Below, in pieces: positions 3,001 through 9,000 of a stretch of 26,474 nt of DNA. Source of the stretch: Pseudobdellovibrionaceae bacterium (GTDB lineage: Bacteria; Bdellovibrionota; Bdellovibrionia; Bdellovibrionales; Bdellovibrionaceae); NCBI GenBank assembly GCA_044359815.1, contig JBIKLL010000032.1:1-26474 (forward strand). Reading direction: 5' to 3'. Made by a program: the position numbers. Position 1 is the stretch's first letter. Every line of letters begins with the position of its first letter.

Positions 3001-6000
3001 AGCTGGAGTGGTTGGCCTGCAGCCCAAGATTAATCCGGGTAAATGTTTTGAATACGAAAGCGCATGTCCGTTAAACACTCAAAGCGGCAGCATGAAGGGT
3101 TTTTATCAGATGGTATCTGACGACGGCTCAACCTTTGAAATCGAAATCCCCGAATTTTATCTGATCGCCCCCACTGCGCTTCATTAGAATTTTTAAGCGT
3201 CAACAGTCACAGTGAGACTTTTTCTGTCTACGGTGCGAAATGCAGGTATCCCAATTAGTTTAATTCAAATGATGTGTGACCCTAGTTCCTGAGAGGTCCA
3301 AGGTTTGAAAAAAATTTCTCACAGATTAGATTTTTATAAAGGATTTTTTTCAGATTTTCACAAAGCGGTATTTTCCCGAGGCACCTTCAATGCGCTGTCT
3401 CTATCCCGGGGAAAGTGATTTGTTTGTTTAATTGGGAAAATGTTTTTTTACCATTACCTGAGATAAATAGTGATCATTGATTTTATTTTATTTTATTTGC
3501 TGAAGGGTATTTGTTACCCCAATAAAATTGAGTCTGAAATTTCAGTGAACGGATTTTTTGTTTTAGATGATTCTAATGTTTGATTGATACCGGTGCGTAC
3601 CTGACTCCAACGCGCTGTCTCTATCCCGGGGAAAGTGATTTTTCATGATTATTAATCAAGGAAAAATTAACCTTAAAAATTCAATGAATGTTTGAGCTTT
3701 TAATTATTTAAAATATTTTCTTAGAATGTTCAAAACCCAACTGACCAATATCTAAATTCAAAATTCAAAGGTCTTAGAATTACAAAATTAATTTCTATTA
3801 GAATAAAACCAAAAATCAACGCCACGCCATTTTCTGAAGAAATAAAAAAAATATTTTTCTTGACCGCGGTTTTTCAAAAACATCCCAAGAAAATGCTGGC
3901 AAAACAAATCCTTTCTAATCGCCATTTAAAGCTCGGCATTTGCCCTCTATCAAAATTAATTTAGCAAAATAAATCCCCTGTGATTCGGCAAAATAAAACC
4001 CAGCAAACAAGATTCTAAGGCTGAAAAATCCATCTGAAAATCCATGGTAAGTTGCATTTTATCAAAAGGAGCAAGCATGCAAACAAACTTTGAAATTAGC
4101 AGAGGCATTGAATTAGAAACAAGAACGCAGAATCCTATGCAAGATGATTTGCAGTCAGGAATGAAGATAAAAATGGAGATGAGATCGCAAAGCAAATTAG
4201 AATCTGGAAAAAGGTACGAAGTTGTGCAATTGAAAGAAAAAAGTAATCAAACGTCTGAGTTTAAATCAATACCAAAAGCCAAGCAGTCCGTCGAAATCAG
4301 AAAGCTAGATGATAAAACCCTCGATCAGCAGACCAAAAATCTGGTGGGACAAGAGCGCGAATTGACCGTACAGATTTTGCACTACTTGCAAGAAATCAAT
4401 CGCAGAAGGTATTTTGCCAAGCGGGGATATCCATCATTGTTTGAGTACGCCGTCAAAGAGCTGAAATATTCAGAATCACAGGCTCACCGCAGGATTGCGG
4501 CAATGCGGTTAGTAAACGACATTCCTGAGGTGGAAGAAAAACTGTCCAATGGTCATTTGACCTTGGCGACAGTGGCGCAGGCACAAACATTTTTTCGTCA
4601 AGAATCTAAAGCCACTGGTATCGCCAGAAACAACGATCAAAAGCGGGATCTTTTGAAAAAGCTTGAGGGTAAATCCAAGCGAACCGTAGAAAAAACATTA
4701 ATTGAACTGTGTCCAAAACTGGTTCAATCCAGGGAAACATTAAAGCCGATCGCAACAGAATTTTACGAGCTAAAAATCACAATGACCCAGTCGCAGCAGC
4801 AAAAGTTAGAAAGGCTGAAGGAGCTGAAAAACACCCAAAGCACAGCCGAAATAATAGATTGGATGATGGATTTGGCACTGACAAAAGTTGATCCGTTAAA
4901 AAAACCTAAAGTAGGTTATAGCAAGGCCAAACGTTCAAACTCTGAAACGCAGAAAAAATCTGCGCAACGCGCTGTCTCTATCCCGGGGAAAGTGAACCGA
5001 TACATCCCCAGGGATTTCAAACAGAATCTTTGGATCAGGTCAGGTGGGCAGTGTGAGTTTGTTGATCATCTGACAGAGCGACGGTGCGAATGCAGAATGC
5101 ATTTGCAGATTGATCATATTCAGCCAATTGGCTTGGGTGGAAAAACGGCCCAAGAAAACCTGCGACTAGTTTGTCGCAGCCACAATCAGCTATTTGCAAT
5201 TCAGTCTTTCGGAAGCCAGCAGATGGCAAAATTTTTACCTGATTTGAGATAGATCAACACTGGTGCTCACAATTACCAACACAGCTGCCCACTTGCCCGC
5301 GGTAATTTTAAACTTTAAAAAAATATTTCTGTGATTTCACATCTTCTGATGTATGTTTGCGAGCGCGCTAGTCATATATGGTGGTGATTTAAATGAATCA
5401 ATACTAGAGATGGTCTTGCGGCCGTTAGCAAGTATTCACAAGGTGTAACATCACAGAAATATTTTTTTAAATTCAAAATAACCTCAGATAACTGGGCAGC
5501 GGCATTCACTTATCCAAATAATACTTTTTAACGGCAGGTCTGCTGCAGAGCCGACCCGACTACGACGCTTTCAGAAGCCCCTTAGTCCATCGTTGGATGA
5601 TGGAGACTGGGGCGCGATCGAACTGAACTCCGTAAGCAGCGTTGGCCTGTGACCAAACAATGTGGCCTTGGACTTGGATTTCCTCTTGGCCTTCTGGACT
5701 GTGGATTTTGATCGTGACGATTCCACCTTTTTCCAGCATTTGTTCGGCATTGAATGACAGTCCACCAACCGAAATAGTTTTCATCTGACCCACAAGCTCT
5801 TGGCCGCCAGCCATCACTGTGATCGCAGAGTTCATTAAAAATCTTTCGTGCTTACGATTGTCTTTTGGTTTTTTGATTCTAGAGCGCAGGATTGTCCAAG
5901 CAAGAACTGGGACCAATGCAATTGCAAATACAATGGCAATCAGAGCATTGCTACCACCGGCTGCGCCGCCCGTTGCAGAAATTAATCTAACGGTTCCGCA

Positions 6001-9000
6001 ACCACCGCCACCAGAAACTTCTCCGTCTGGACCGCGGCCCGTAGCATTTGCAGCCACATAAGACGGTTGATAAGCAGCCGTGTTAGTTTCATTTTTCGCA
6101 GCCATGATCGCATCATAAACGTCGATTCGAGCGCTTGATGAAAGCTTGGTCGCCAAATTGGACTTAACTTCACCGGATCCAACCAACAAGGCTTTGATTT
6201 GATAACCTGTTAATTGCGGAGCCTCACGAAACATCATGGCAGCAATGCCGGCCACCAAAGGTGCTGCCATGCTGGTGCCGTTCATATATCGATAACTACT
6301 ATTTGGAATCGTTGAATAAATCGCAACTCCGGGTGAGCCAACGTGAACTGTTGAAACTCCGTAGTTTGAAAATGAAGCCAAATTGTCAAAATCATTTGAG
6401 GCCGCAATGCTCATTAATCCAGGCACAGGGTAAGTAGCTGGATAAAGAGGTTTTGAATCATTGTTGCTAGAATAATTGCCGGCAGCAGCAGTGACAAAAA
6501 CACCTTCGTTATAGGCGGCTGTGATCGCATCGTGCAGTGCTTGGCTGTAAGCTTCGCCACCCCAAGAATTATTAATCACTCGTGCGCCGTTGTTAACAGC
6601 ATAATTAATCGCCGCAATGGCTGATGATGTGGTCCCGCTGCCATCAGCACCAAGAAATTTTAAAGGCATGATTTTAACACGAGCTGCAGAAGTGTCTGTC
6701 AAAGCCTGGCTGATACCAAACACGATTCCAGCAACGTGGGTTCCATGATTATCGTCATCCATGGGGTCATTTGTATTGGCGTGGAAATTCCAGCCATTAA
6801 CGTCGTCTATATATCCATTGTGATCATCGTCAATTCCGTTGTTTGCGATTTCATCAGCGTTTGTCCATATTGCATTCGCAGCAGTAAAAACTGGGTGAGT
6901 GTAATCCACACCCGTATCAATAACAGCAACAACAATTGGATTTGGATTTTGTGACAATGGAATCATTTCATCCCAAGCCTCTTGCACATGAATATTGGCA
7001 TAAGTTTGGATGTAGCTGCCACTAGAGCTCATGGATTCCATATCTGACTGCGAATAAATTTGAGGATTGTCAGAAGCATCTATAGGTTTTGACAAATAAA
7101 AATTAGGTTCTGCAAATTCTACGTTAGGATCTTTTTTCAGTTCATCAATAAATGCCTGAACATCCCCTGATCCCTTCATTGCAATCTTTTGCATACCCAC
7201 CGAACTGTAAACACCACGAACCACAAAACTGCTAGAGATCTTTCCGCTGACTGCTAAAGAATTAGTTCCAGGCTTGTATTTAACAATGACTTCCCCGGGG
7301 ACATAATTTTGACCCCAGAGCGGTTGAACACCTATTATTAGACTCAAAACGGTGAGCCTGAACCATAACTTACGTGCCATCATGTTAGATCTATCGGATC
7401 TAGGTCCAGTCCAGTTGAGCAAAAATCCGAAATTTCTCAAATTGATACAGGAAAAAATCTAGAATAATTGATGGAGATCAGGATGAGTCATTTCAGTCGC
7501 ATTTTTGTACGGGGATTTGTAACACTGTTGCCAATCGCTCTGACCATATATATTACCTATTCGGCAATTATCATTTTGGAAAACGTGCTGGGTTCTCTGA
7601 TCCGAATCATAATCCCCAAAGAGGCCTACGTTCCTGGCCTGGGATTTATTGCTACCTTGGTGACCATCTATTTATTTGGATTGCTGCTTAACAGTTACTT
7701 GGCAGAAGGATTTTTAAAGTCCCTCGAGGCTCGCTTTAGGGATGTGCCTTTTATTAAAGCGATTTATGCTCCGTTAAAAGATCTGATGAATTTGTTTACC
7801 CGCGATAAACACGAACAGATGAAAAACGTTGTGCTGGTAAAGCTGCCTGACAACAGACACGCGTTAGGTGTGGTCACTCGCGAGAATTTCGATGATATTA
7901 GATTGTCCAAAGGAACTGGGATAATGGATCAGCATAAAAACACCGTGGCAGTGTTTTTTCCGATGAGCTATGGCTTGGGTGGATTTACATTTTTGGTTCC
8001 CAAGGATCAATTGGAAGCATTAGACATTCCAGTTGAAAAAGCCATGAGTCTAGCAATCACCGGTTGGGTTAAAAAGTCGGAGGACTAAATGCAATCAAAC
8101 AACACCTTGGCAAAAGCGTTAGAGGTTAACAAGGATCCAAAATATTACGGAGCCTTTGCCGAAATTGGTGCTGGGCAAGAGGTCGCAAGGTTTTTCTTTC
8201 AAGCCGGGCAGGCTTCAAAGACCATCGCAAAAACCATGTCAGCCTATGACATGATTTACAGTGACGAAATTTACGGTAAAGAAAAATCCGGCAGATACGT
8301 CTGCGAATCCCGAGTGGTGAAAATGCTTGAAAAAGAATATTCACTACTGGAAAAACGATTATCAGCAAGTCGTGGTGATAAGACCTGTTTTTTTGCTTTT
8401 GCAGACACTGTGGCAACAGGGGATCAGATCAAGCAATACACCCATGGGTGGTTAGGAGTCAGGTTTCAAACTAAACCGCAGGGGCCTTTTAATGACATTG
8501 TTATGCATGTGCGGATGCTGGATAAATACAGGCTGTTGCAACAAGAGGTTTTGGGTGTGGTCGGAGTTAATCTAGTTCACACGGCGTGCTTTGCGCTGAA
8601 AAATGAGCGCGAAATCGTATCCAATTTAGTGGAAGATTTAAAGGAAGGTCAGGTCAGCATTGATTTGATCAGGTTTTCTGGTCCTGATGTGAAACATATT
8701 GATAATCATTTGGTAAATCTGGAGCTGGTTAAAAGAGGCCTTGCCGAGGCCGTGATGTTTGGACCAGATGGTGAAATAGTTTCTGCCAGCGAAACTCTGT
8801 TTAAAAAAGACGTCATCATTCAGAGGGGAAGTTTTAAGCCTGTTACAAAAACTCACATCGATGTGCTGGAAAAAGGTGTCGAAGAATTTAAAACAGATTT
8901 TTCAACCAAAGAAAATCCCATGGTTTTGTTTGAGCTGACTATGAATTCGCTGGAAGACGATGGAAAAATTGACGAAAAAGATTTTTTATCCAGGGTCACT

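Follow-up and report, generated by a model that had tools for sequence, protein, structure and literature searches.

The window, a 26,474-nucleotide stretch of a contig from a Pseudobdellovibrionaceae bacterium, carries on its minus strand a gene for a protein of 607 residues (Table 1). From N- to C-terminus the protein consists of a signal peptide, a fervidolysin-type propeptide, an S8 subtilase domain, a GCG-bearing linker, one transmembrane (TM) helix, a basic stretch and a PilZ domain. An alternative in-frame TTG start at 7440 would give an ORF of 626 residues (5560..7440, minus); the starts of the homologues lie near the ATG form rather than the TTG form. All three Pfam matches exceeded their respective cut-offs, and the domain boundaries given by the survey's finding were reproduced with the scores listed in Table 1. 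The PilZ domain was the top-scoring of the 12 PilZ matches in the genome.

Table 1. Features of the gene encoding the 607-residue protein and of its neighbours.
Feature	Position in the window	Strand	Remarks
Whole coding sequence	5560..7383	minus	607 aa plus stop; ATG at 7383
Signal peptide, residues 1-24	7312..7383	minus	Basic N-terminus and hydrophobic core; predicted cleavage before Q25
Fervidolysin-type N-terminal propeptide, residues 21-94	7102..7323	minus	PF22148 (Fervidolysin_NPro-like), 45.5 bits, cut-off 21
S8 subtilase catalytic domain, residues 150-403	6175..6936	minus	PF00082 (Peptidase_S8), 176.2 bits
Catalytic triad codons	D156 6916-6918; H216 6736-6738; S371 6271-6273	minus	Each residue 121/121
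Linker, residues 431-479	5947..6093	minus	Gly/Ser/Ala/Pro-rich; P440 invariant, R450 117/121; length variable
G461-C462-G463, then V/I at +2	5995..6003	minus	Invariant, 121/121
Single TM helix, residues 480-502	5878..5946	minus	Kyte-Doolittle 2.77 at 481-499; P492 invariant, W496 117/121
Basic juxtamembrane stretch, residues 500-514	5842..5886	minus	Leads into first PilZ motif (R)RxxxR (R510, R514)
PilZ domain, residues 509-593	5605..5859	minus	PF07238, 60.3 bits, E 2.6e-16; second motif T536-I-S538-x-G-G541
Divergent neighbours	7468..9471	plus	Context only
DUF502 membrane protein	7468-8088	plus	
460-aa protein without Pfam match	8089-9471	plus	

As the survey had reported, PF00082 and PF07238 occurred together in 119 of the 120 best homologues; the exception (P0004, 544 residues) is probably truncated; its contig is 1954 bp long. 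Conservation was counted in a MAFFT alignment of 121 sequences, numbered on the 607-residue protein. The residues singled out earlier were the right ones, with numbers one lower than their actual positions. The catalytic triad was indeed invariant (D156, H216 and S371 in 121/121), and the same held for G461-C462-G463, P492 and the PilZ arginines R510 and R514. The invariance also claimed for the Trp and for the second PilZ motif was relaxed to near-invariance (W496 117, T536 119, S538 118, G540 119 and G541 120 of 121); R509 was found in 105 sequences. C462 is the sole conserved cysteine of the family, and 49 of the 121 proteins contain no other. The S8 domain was modelled by AlphaFold2 (AF2) at pLDDT >90, its closest solved structure in Foldseek was deseasin MCP-01 (3vv3_A, 44% identity, E 3e-31), and the propeptide matched pro-subtilisins and SUB1 with its prodomain. 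The invariant triad and these deseasin- and SUB1-like matches argue strongly that the subtilase domain is intact.

The placement of the subtilase outside and the PilZ domain inside the inner membrane, formerly judged by eye, was borne out by the family analysis. One strong hydrophobic 19-mer (Kyte-Doolittle >= 1.6) was present between the S8 and PilZ domains in 120 of 121 members; the AF2 model shows the segment as helices 480-489 and 491-502. The family mean net charge was +0.4 over the 18 residues preceding the helix versus +5.1 over the 15 that follow, and the basic stretch holds on average 6.8 Lys and Arg residues. The signal peptide region is helical in the model (residues 2-18), and AxA-type sites close the signal peptides of the family immediately before Q[D/N]YVPGE. 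The protein is thus very probably exported via a cleavable signal peptide, and an N-out/C-in orientation, with the protease outside the inner membrane and PilZ in the cytoplasm, is strongly indicated.

Within the order to which the window belongs, the gene is near-universal and present once per genome. Among the sampled genomes, the S8-PilZ tail was found in 54/54 of the same family, 40/48 of the same order and 1/298 of other classes, the last being a weak unrelated PilZ match. The description as a conserved family of Bdellovibrionota therefore stands for Bdellovibrio-type bacteria but has to be narrowed to the gene's own order and class. The search of 1.84 billion representatives with the tail gave 71 matches at E <= 1e-10, which were either proteins of 596-680 residues that end in the tail or short fragments, and none of these 71 joined the tail to any other partner. 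Seven same-order relatives lack PilZ and retain the anchor. The PilZ tail appears dispensable because lineages whose only copy is PilZ-less still possess GGDEF genes.

The S8-PilZ architecture is real and conserved, but it has already been catalogued. The survey had found no paper that holds subtilisin together with PilZ; however, Tripathi & Sowdhamini listed 'Subt-PilZ' NP_969350.1 of B. bacteriovorus already in 2008 (PMC2605481), and Bd2545 of strain HD100, named 'subtilisin like serine protease', was counted among the pilZ genes in 2010. The two entries were equated by the descriptions in these papers, not by sequence comparison. Nor do databases name the family only 'S8 family serine peptidase', since some JGI records read 'subtilisin family serine protease/Tfp pilus assembly protein PilZ'. 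Bd2545 has the same domain order as the 607-residue protein, which we infer, without alignment to the HD100 sequence, to be its local orthologue; identity to same-family homologues was about 41-54%. Bd2545 is attack-phase enriched according to the supplement of PMC2797640, where its expression drops to 0.62/0.58 on bdelloplast entry and to 0.13/0.10 in host-independent growth. Its probable 109J orthologue EP01_RS08730, assigned by name and synteny only, was neutral in predation Tn-seq (W 0.96-1.46, where defects are W < 0.1-0.5), and any role is therefore non-essential or redundant under those conditions.

The survey's observation that the second motif has Thr at the canonical Asp/Asn position was confirmed (T536 in 119/121); a genus-g2 member has the canonical Asp, and Glu, Ser, Asn or Asp occupies this position in further PilZ domains of the same genome. 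AF2 gave a strand and helix pattern for the tail at pLDDT 55-77 within the full model (61.5 for the tail alone), so that confidence in the fold is moderate. Foldseek with the tail model returned no match at E <= 0.001; weaker matches were to PilZ structures, including the Alg44 PilZ domain and BcsA. The list also held 3dsg, an example of a non-binding PilZ domain by its title. A tail that is ligand-independent (an adaptor, stabiliser or relic) on a constitutively membrane-anchored periplasmic housekeeping protease would fit the Thr substitution, the existence of such non-binding domains, the survival of PilZ-less forms in related lineages and the Tn-seq neutrality. This reading is nevertheless improbable, as the RxxxR arginines are invariant and S538, G540 and G541 near-invariant in proteins only 45-55% identical overall, which is the pattern expected from ligand contact and not from the fold alone. 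The ligand motifs (R)RxxxR and [T/D]xSxxG are very likely intact. PilZ domains are described in a preprint (10.1101/814665) as acting by protein contacts through the C-terminal helix; in this family that helix reaches about residue 600, and I596, W599 and L603 are near-invariant.

The GCG motif is no hallmark of the PilZ fusion; it belongs to an anchor that is also present on PilZ-less proteases. In Bdellovibrionota, PilZ-less S8 relatives and one M10 metalloprotease terminate exactly at a GCG-spacer-TM-basic segment, and PilZ would therefore have been appended to this module. The signature GC[G/A]x[V/I/L] was present in 12 of the 14 such tails that were read; the other two (L031 and L033) have no aliphatic residue at +2. 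The profile built without S8-PilZ rows gave 43 matches, including the internal segment of S8-PilZ proteins; 27 lay in frames of 606-681 residues, and 16 of these 27 coincided by coordinates with the S8-PilZ tail matches counted above in the sampled genomes. The 607-residue gene itself matched at E 0.0022. These comparisons argue strongly that the segment is a C-terminal module older than the PilZ fusion, newly recognised here.

The module shares an invariant Cys in G-C-G, a TM helix and a basic cytoplasmic end with the MYXO-CTERM tags of Myxococcota, the partners of myxosortase MrtX, which are described with a 'generic GCGC motif', a TM helix and an Arg-rich cytoplasmic end (PMC11980579). It could thus be a Cys-type C-terminal tag that is modified at C462 and cleaved, with PilZ making the processing c-di-GMP-dependent and the protease being freed for the outer membrane, cell surface or prey. 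Besides the tripartite layout, C462 as the only conserved Cys and the extreme C-terminal position of the module in the PilZ-less relatives and the M10 protein agree with such gated sorting; the best NCBIfam neighbour of the latter was 'myxosortase-dependent metalloprotease MXAN_2677/2678' (E 2e-6, 27 bits, cut-off 250). The differences make it a poor prospect. In the 607-residue protein the segment has an internal position, with PilZ after it. A spacer of 15-40 residues separates the module's Cys from its helix, and genomes hold 1-3 carriers versus the dozens given for MYXO-CTERM (PMC11980579). The module matched no HMM: TIGR03901 had 0 matches in the genome, and on none of the tails did a CTERM model reach its cut-off. 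A co-distributed CPBP enzyme is likewise missing, since the Mrt core scored just 13 bits and Rce1-like PF02517 had no match in the own genome, which is 91% complete, and was found in 19/41 same-family genomes, versus 54/54 for the tail. Only generic rhomboids scored against the rhombosortase model, and GlyGly-CTERM was absent.

The survey had proposed that cytoplasmic c-di-GMP directly controls the extracytoplasmic protease within one polypeptide, the bound PilZ domain switching the subtilase through the single helix. The first Arg motif, the RRxxxR switch loop, begins about ten residues past the TM helix, so that the helix could shift or tilt when the ligand binds, and the invariant P492 together with W496 suggests more than a passive anchor. 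However, helix and protease are parted by a variable-length segment predicted to be disordered (residues 449-478, pLDDT 32-38), and the Pro-bearing helix is likewise found in PilZ-less relatives, so that its conservation needs no signalling. The claim is left unsupported and physically awkward, and we consider such allostery very unlikely.

Taken as a whole, the protein is best explained, tentatively and with slightly less than even confidence, as a Subt-PilZ orthologue on an older anchor. c-di-GMP would bind the membrane-proximal PilZ domain and, because the linker is disordered, would leave catalysis without an allosteric switch; it would instead govern the site of action of the tethered protease, or whether it acts at all. 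In the form that we favour, although it is itself rather unlikely, the PilZ tail would dock in a ligand-dependent manner to a partner in the cytoplasm or the inner membrane, and the periplasmic protease would thereby be concentrated at one site in the attack phase. Regulated processing at the GCG module, freeing the protease from its anchor, is a second and distinctly less probable choice.

Known systems show parts of this arrangement. Alg44 consists of PilZ, one TM helix and a periplasmic domain, and BcsA carries a C-terminal PilZ after its last TM helix. Both, like the 607-residue protein, combine in one chain a cytoplasmic PilZ with an effector that lies outside the cytoplasm or within the membrane, but the outer part is here a protease instead of a polysaccharide-secretion component, and, compared with Alg44, the chain runs the other way, with PilZ at the C-terminus. 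In the inside-out LapD/LapG system, the cysteine protease LapG is sequestered by LapD, a GGDEF-EAL receptor on a chain of its own. The idea that cytoplasmic c-di-GMP governs the reach of a periplasmic protease would be common to this system and the 607-residue protein, whereas the latter combines receptor and serine protease in one chain without HAMP or periplasmic output domain. The best NCBIfam neighbour was mycosin (TIGR03921, 112 bits, far under the cut-off of 278.75 bits), the exported S8 protease of type VII secretion with a C-terminal TM anchor. In both proteins the S8 domain is exported and held at the membrane by a helix C-terminal to it; mycosin, in contrast, has no PilZ, and a type VII context is absent around the gene.

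The DUF502 and 460-residue neighbours adjoin the gene in 7/7 same-family loci versus 0/5 loci of other families, and no operon partner conserved beyond the family level was found in these 12 loci. MgtE and ApaG synteny was observed in the same-family loci and recurs around the 109J gene EP01_RS08730.

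The S8-PilZ gene (protein P0001) is a new member of the Subt-PilZ/Bd2545 family, which is catalogued but uncharacterised. It has the layout of that group, with signal peptide, propeptide, S8 protease domain, transmembrane (TM) helix and PilZ domain in a chain of ~600-680 aa, and one copy per genome. S8 and PilZ occurred together in 119 of the 120 best database matches (45-96% identity, 544-685 aa), and the sole exception was a sequence on a 1954-bp contig. These matches, the Pfam domains and the topology signals confirmed the survey's finding of a subtilase-TM-PilZ protein; the residue numbers reported with it were each one lower than the true position on the 607-aa protein. 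Its own genome (2.95 Mb, 125 contigs, 91% complete) contained 12 PilZ matches, among which the S8-PilZ gene scored highest. Scanning for promoters and terminators gave nothing notable.

Features of the S8-PilZ gene, its neighbours and a second carrier of the GCG module. Positions are window nucleotides, protein residues or contig nucleotides as indicated.
Feature	Position	Strand	Description
S8-PilZ ORF	window 5560-7440	-	single open frame; ATG at 7383 gives 607 residues (P0001)
Fervidolysin_NPro-like propeptide	residues 21-94		PF22148, 45.5 bits (Pfam; above cut-off)
Peptidase_S8	residues 150-403		PF00082, 176.2 bits vs cut-off 21.8 (Pfam)
Linker segment	residues 449-478		disordered in AlphaFold2 model, pLDDT 32-38
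Helix	residues 480-502		kink at P492 in AlphaFold2 model, pLDDT 72-78
PilZ	residues 509-593		PF07238, 60.3 bits vs cut-off 22.5; profile positions 2-90 of 102 (Pfam)
402-aa ORF	window 4044-5252	+	DUF222 and HNH endonuclease matches; convergent to S8-PilZ gene
460-aa protein	window 8089-9471	+	abuts DUF502 gene without overlap; 46-59% identity in 7/7 same-family loci
IS200-like Y1 transposase ORF	window 9501-10136	-	211 aa, 33.5 bits; after 460-aa gene; counterpart in 0/12 related loci
M10 metalloprotease	contig C33 of the own genome, 44251-44982 (= locus L037, 1252-1983)	+	243 aa; signal peptide; Cys signature, spacer, Pro-containing TM helix, basic tail

In a MAFFT alignment of 121 sequences, D156, H216, S371, N303, G461-C462-G463, P492, R510 and R514 were present in 121/121. 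The Asp-His-Ser triad of S8 was thus found in that order in every member, and N303 is presumably the oxyanion Asn, with the role that it has in subtilisin. Near-invariant positions were W496 (117), T536 (119), S538 (118), G540 (119) and G541 (120), as well as I596, W599 and L603 of the PilZ C-terminal helix. R509, next to the invariant RxxxR arginines of PilZ, was conserved in 105/121. The second PilZ motif reads T-I-S-x-G-G, with T in 119/121, S in 118 and the final G in 120; the c-di-GMP-binding form of this motif is given as [D/N]hSxxG in a PilZ survey preprint (10.1101/814665). At the second motif, one member of genus g2 carries D-M-S-V-G-G and another T-L-A-V-G-G, and the position equivalent to T536 is E, S, N or D in the other PilZ domains of the own genome. 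The invariant RxxxR, the canonical D in the genus-g2 member and the variation among the other PilZ domains all suggest that the PilZ domain of S8-PilZ probably binds c-di-GMP, and a tail acting independently of ligand is rated improbable.

The protease is predicted to lie outside the cytoplasmic membrane and the PilZ domain inside. A single strong hydrophobic 19-mer separates S8 from PilZ in 120/121 members; the mean net charge is +0.4 over the 18 residues preceding the helix and +5.1 over the 15 residues after it, where K+R average 6.8 across the family. AxA-type sites close the N-termini, immediately ahead of a conserved Q[D/N]YVPGE. An AlphaFold2 model built on a 62-row alignment (mean pLDDT 83.8) gave pLDDT >90 for the propeptide and S8, and 55-77 for a PilZ-like strand pattern with its C-terminal helix; c-di-GMP-binding PilZ domains fold as a six-stranded beta-barrel with such a helix. 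The closest Foldseek neighbour of the protease part was deseasin MCP-01 (3vv3_A; 44% identity, E 3e-31); Plasmodium SUB1, pro-subtilisins, fervidolysin and thermitase also matched. Matches to unprocessed pro-subtilisins, together with the PF22148 match, identify the propeptide as that of a zymogen. When the tail (linker to C-terminus) was modelled separately, the model was poor (pLDDT 61.5) and had 0 Foldseek matches at E <= 0.001; its weak top matches were PilZ structures, namely MotI (5vx6, 5e-3), Alg44 (4rt0), PlzA, YcgR and BcsA. Mycosin was considered as a possible family, since the best NCBIfam neighbour was TIGR03921 (T7SS mycosin), and was rejected at 112.4 bits vs a cut-off of 278.75.

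The survey's finding had further proposed that cytoplasmic c-di-GMP could directly control the protease within the one polypeptide. This interpretation is partly supported: the domains, the order in which they follow one another, the conservation of both and the signals of topology are all shown. Direct allosteric control of catalysis is highly unlikely, because the protease is modelled as hanging on a disordered, length-variable linker. We favour a mechanism in which c-di-GMP would govern the position of the tethered protease, or whether the tether persists. For the first of these, ligand-dependent docking of the PilZ tail to a partner is a tentative possibility, suggested by the near-invariant I596, W599 and L603 and by the preprint's account of PilZ domains acting via their C-terminal helix (10.1101/814665). 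For the second, ligand-dependent processing at the GCG module (G461-C462-G463, a flexible spacer, a Pro-containing TM helix and a basic cluster) is unlikely. A tail homodimer prediction (2 copies + 4 c-di-GMP) gave no answer (ipSAE 0.00 in both runs, controls not folded) and counts as evidence neither way. In the LapD/LapG system the receptor is a protein of its own, a GGDEF-EAL receptor whose periplasmic domain sequesters a cysteine protease of the LapG type; S8-PilZ instead unites its PilZ domain and a serine protease in a single chain. Should the PilZ tail bind c-di-GMP, no other known c-di-GMP receptor would share one chain with an extracytoplasmic protease, and the protein would be a compact system for studying how a cytoplasmic messenger acts across a membrane.

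The architecture was published as early as 2008, when a survey listed 'Subt-PilZ NP_969350.1' of B. bacteriovorus with the function 'Signalling' (PMC2605481), and Peptidase_S8 was named in 2020 among the catalytic domains accompanying PilZ (PMC7288161). In 2010, Bd2545 of strain HD100 was counted with the pilZ genes whose expression falls once attack phase ends, with fold changes of 0.62/0.58 on bdelloplast entry and 0.13/0.10 in host-independent growth, and was named 'subtilisin like serine protease' in a supplement table (PMC2797640). The relevant passages of these three papers do not discuss membrane topology or mechanism. The words Bdellovibrio, protease, peptidase and transmembrane do not appear in the PilZ survey preprint (10.1101/814665), and a search of open-access full text for Bd2545 returned PMC2797640 as the sole relevant paper. 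From distribution, synteny and the annotations in papers, rather than from an alignment to the named HD100 sequence, we infer that the S8-PilZ gene is orthologous to Bd2545.

In strain 109J, the probable orthologue is EP01_RS08730, a 'subtilisin-like serine protease' that adjoins a magnesium transporter and lies ten genes from ApaG (PMC6561027 supplement 5); the same magnesium transporter/ApaG neighbourhood recurs in same-family loci. EP01_RS11960, annotated as 'subtilase', was rejected as the 109J orthologue: it is flanked by genes for succinate dehydrogenase and ribosomal proteins, which does not fit the synteny of S8-PilZ loci. The Tn-seq fitness values of EP01_RS08730 were 0.96, 1.46, 1.06 and 1.25 across planktonic and biofilm V. 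cholerae and E. coli, on a scale where W < 0.1 (and 0.1-0.5) is defective and about 1 neutral (PMC6561027). With values this near neutral, the gene, whose orthology is inferred and not aligned, seems not to be needed for predation in these assays. The attack-phase enrichment of Bd2545 is consistent with a role at prey entry or earlier, and the neutrality of the probable orthologue, together with naturally occurring PilZ-less forms, indicates that this role is not essential. Both the 2008 record and this dispensability weigh against the significance of the gene. S8-PilZ nonetheless belongs to the core genes of predatory Bdellovibrio and is enriched in attack phase. In this organism c-di-GMP controls entry into prey, gliding and the change to axenic growth (PMC3271064), so the gene could link c-di-GMP signalling to envelope proteolysis.

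Of 401 genomes sampled across the phylum, 397 gave a match to the whole protein, those outside the window's class via the protease part only. The tail was detected in 54/54 genomes of the same family (own genome included), 40/48 of the same order and the 1/1 genome from another order of the class; among all other classes it gave 1/298, a weak match in a 282-aa frame. Each tail-bearing genome had one copy in a frame of 606-704 aa, with the exception of an interrupted gene in G086 (346-aa frame). A search against 1.84 billion cluster representatives returned 116 proteins at E <= 0.001, of which 71 reached E <= 1e-10. These strong matches were 596-680-aa proteins with the tail at the C-terminus, or short fragments, and no other fusion partner of the tail was seen among these representatives. 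Eighty loci were kept from named records; seven of them extend to at least residue 605 (six near-full-length, and L042 without the N-terminus), and all seven are labelled Bdellovibrio, Pseudobdellovibrio, Pseudobdellovibrionaceae, Bdellovibrionales or Bdellovibrionota.

The GCG anchor module appears, from sequence comparison, to predate the PilZ fusion, a result new in this analysis. Thirteen PilZ-less S8 relatives, in frames of 476-553 aa, end right after [G/A]-C-[G/A], a 15-40-residue spacer, a TM helix that in most cases contains Pro, and a short basic tail. They comprise small-genome lineages of the same order without the PilZ form, members of another class, and paralogues in genomes that also bear S8-PilZ (G121, G283, G319). 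Of the 2256 ORFs in the own genome that are 150 aa or longer, 58 have a TM helix and basic residues at the C-terminus, and only one of these, the M10 matrixin-type metalloprotease, has the Cys signature upstream, making it the one further module carrier among the 2256. Its best NCBIfam neighbour was 'myxosortase-dependent metalloprotease MXAN_2677/2678', at 27 bits vs a cut-off of 250 and over the catalytic region only.

A profile of the module was built from 13 PilZ-less tails only (12 S8 relatives and the M10 tail) and run on 41 genomes of the order, where it gave 43 matches in 30/41 genomes, 1-3 each: 27 in frames of S8-PilZ size (606-681 aa; 16 share coordinates with tail matches), seven in PilZ-less S8 frames (520-546 aa), six in M10-like frames (257-290 aa) and three in short frames (38-184 aa). 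The own S8-PilZ gene, one of these 16, was matched at E 0.0022.

The module resembles the MYXO-CTERM tag, whose 'generic GCGC motif' holds an invariant Cys and precedes a TM helix with an Arg-rich end in the cytoplasm (PMC11980579). S8-PilZ shares the layout of Cys signature (GCG, 121/121), TM helix (120/121) and basic cytoplasmic cluster, but the segment is not at the extreme C-terminus, since ~95 residues of PilZ follow; the extreme C-terminal position is found in the 13 PilZ-less S8 relatives and the M10 protein. Tagged MYXO-CTERM proteins are also many per genome, in contrast to the one to three matches of the GCG module. TIGR03901 (MYXO-CTERM) had 0 matches in the own genome, the GCG segment of S8-PilZ matched 0 families, and no CTERM model exceeded its cut-off on any relative's tail. 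Sorting enzymes were likewise sought in the own genome. The Mrt core NF040914 reached 13 bits vs a cut-off of 100, the rhombosortase model TIGR03902 found generic rhomboids only (29-39 bits vs 84), GlyGly-CTERM (TIGR03501) was absent, and PF02517 (Rce1-like/CPBP) had 0 matches in this 91% complete assembly and occurred in 19/41 same-family genomes. Processing of the segment by myxosortase or rhombosortase thus received no support from these searches. The Haft preprint mentions neither Bdellovibrio nor PilZ. Because the defining MYXO-CTERM tests fail, the GCG segment is best described as a putative anchor module, specific to the lineage, in which a lone cysteine is conserved. It is quite unlikely that the module is an undescribed Cys-type C-terminal sorting/release tag of Bdellovibrionota proteases, handled by a non-Rce1-type enzyme, with the fused PilZ making inner-membrane release c-di-GMP-dependent; GCG tag and PilZ would then form a second-messenger-gated protein-sorting signal. 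Its presence on unrelated proteases makes the module a separate lead to a route of anchoring or sorting that is yet to be described.

A maximum-likelihood tree of the S8 domain (42 rows, unrooted) placed all 20 S8-PilZ rows and 7 same-order PilZ-less rows on one side of a 100/99 branch, with PilZ-less rows interspersed among the S8-PilZ rows. Three label changes were needed, only one of them forced by well-supported branches, and the tree is compatible with a single gain of PilZ followed by losses. The PilZ tail is missing in small-genome (1.2-2.4 Mb) lineages of the same order (G247, G172 and G232 of genus g26, G032 of g14, G334, G105 and G391), of which G247, G172, G232 and G032 keep an anchored PilZ-less S8 orthologue. 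A link between loss of the tail and loss of c-di-GMP synthesis was rejected: all seven tail-lacking genomes examined keep GGDEF matches (2-3, vs 4-5 in three tail-bearing genomes).

No conserved operon partner of the S8-PilZ gene was seen in 12 related loci. Divergent from it are genes for a DUF502 membrane protein and the 460-aa protein, the latter without a Pfam match; this pair adjoins S8-PilZ in 7/7 same-family loci and 0/5 loci of other families, and gives no functional clue. The 402-aa DUF222/HNH ORF has a counterpart in 0/12 related loci and is therefore probably an insertion. It shows a strong AT skew (0.305) and adjoins a low-GC stretch (35% GC; 3001-4000).

PilZ-less S8 proteins of family f17 with the GCG-TM module were read at loci L029-L034 in another class (genomes G005, G085, G031, G078, G023), and four of the six share a conserved R-(R/x)-K-F-(V/L)-(L/F)-x-x-F tail past the helix. 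The nearest S8 paralogues without the module (L121-L124, L126, L130) have a beta-rich C-terminal domain of ~110 residues in place of linker, TM helix and PilZ; this may correspond to 'Subt-CUB', an architecture recorded for a Bdellovibrio protein in the 2008 survey (PMC2605481).
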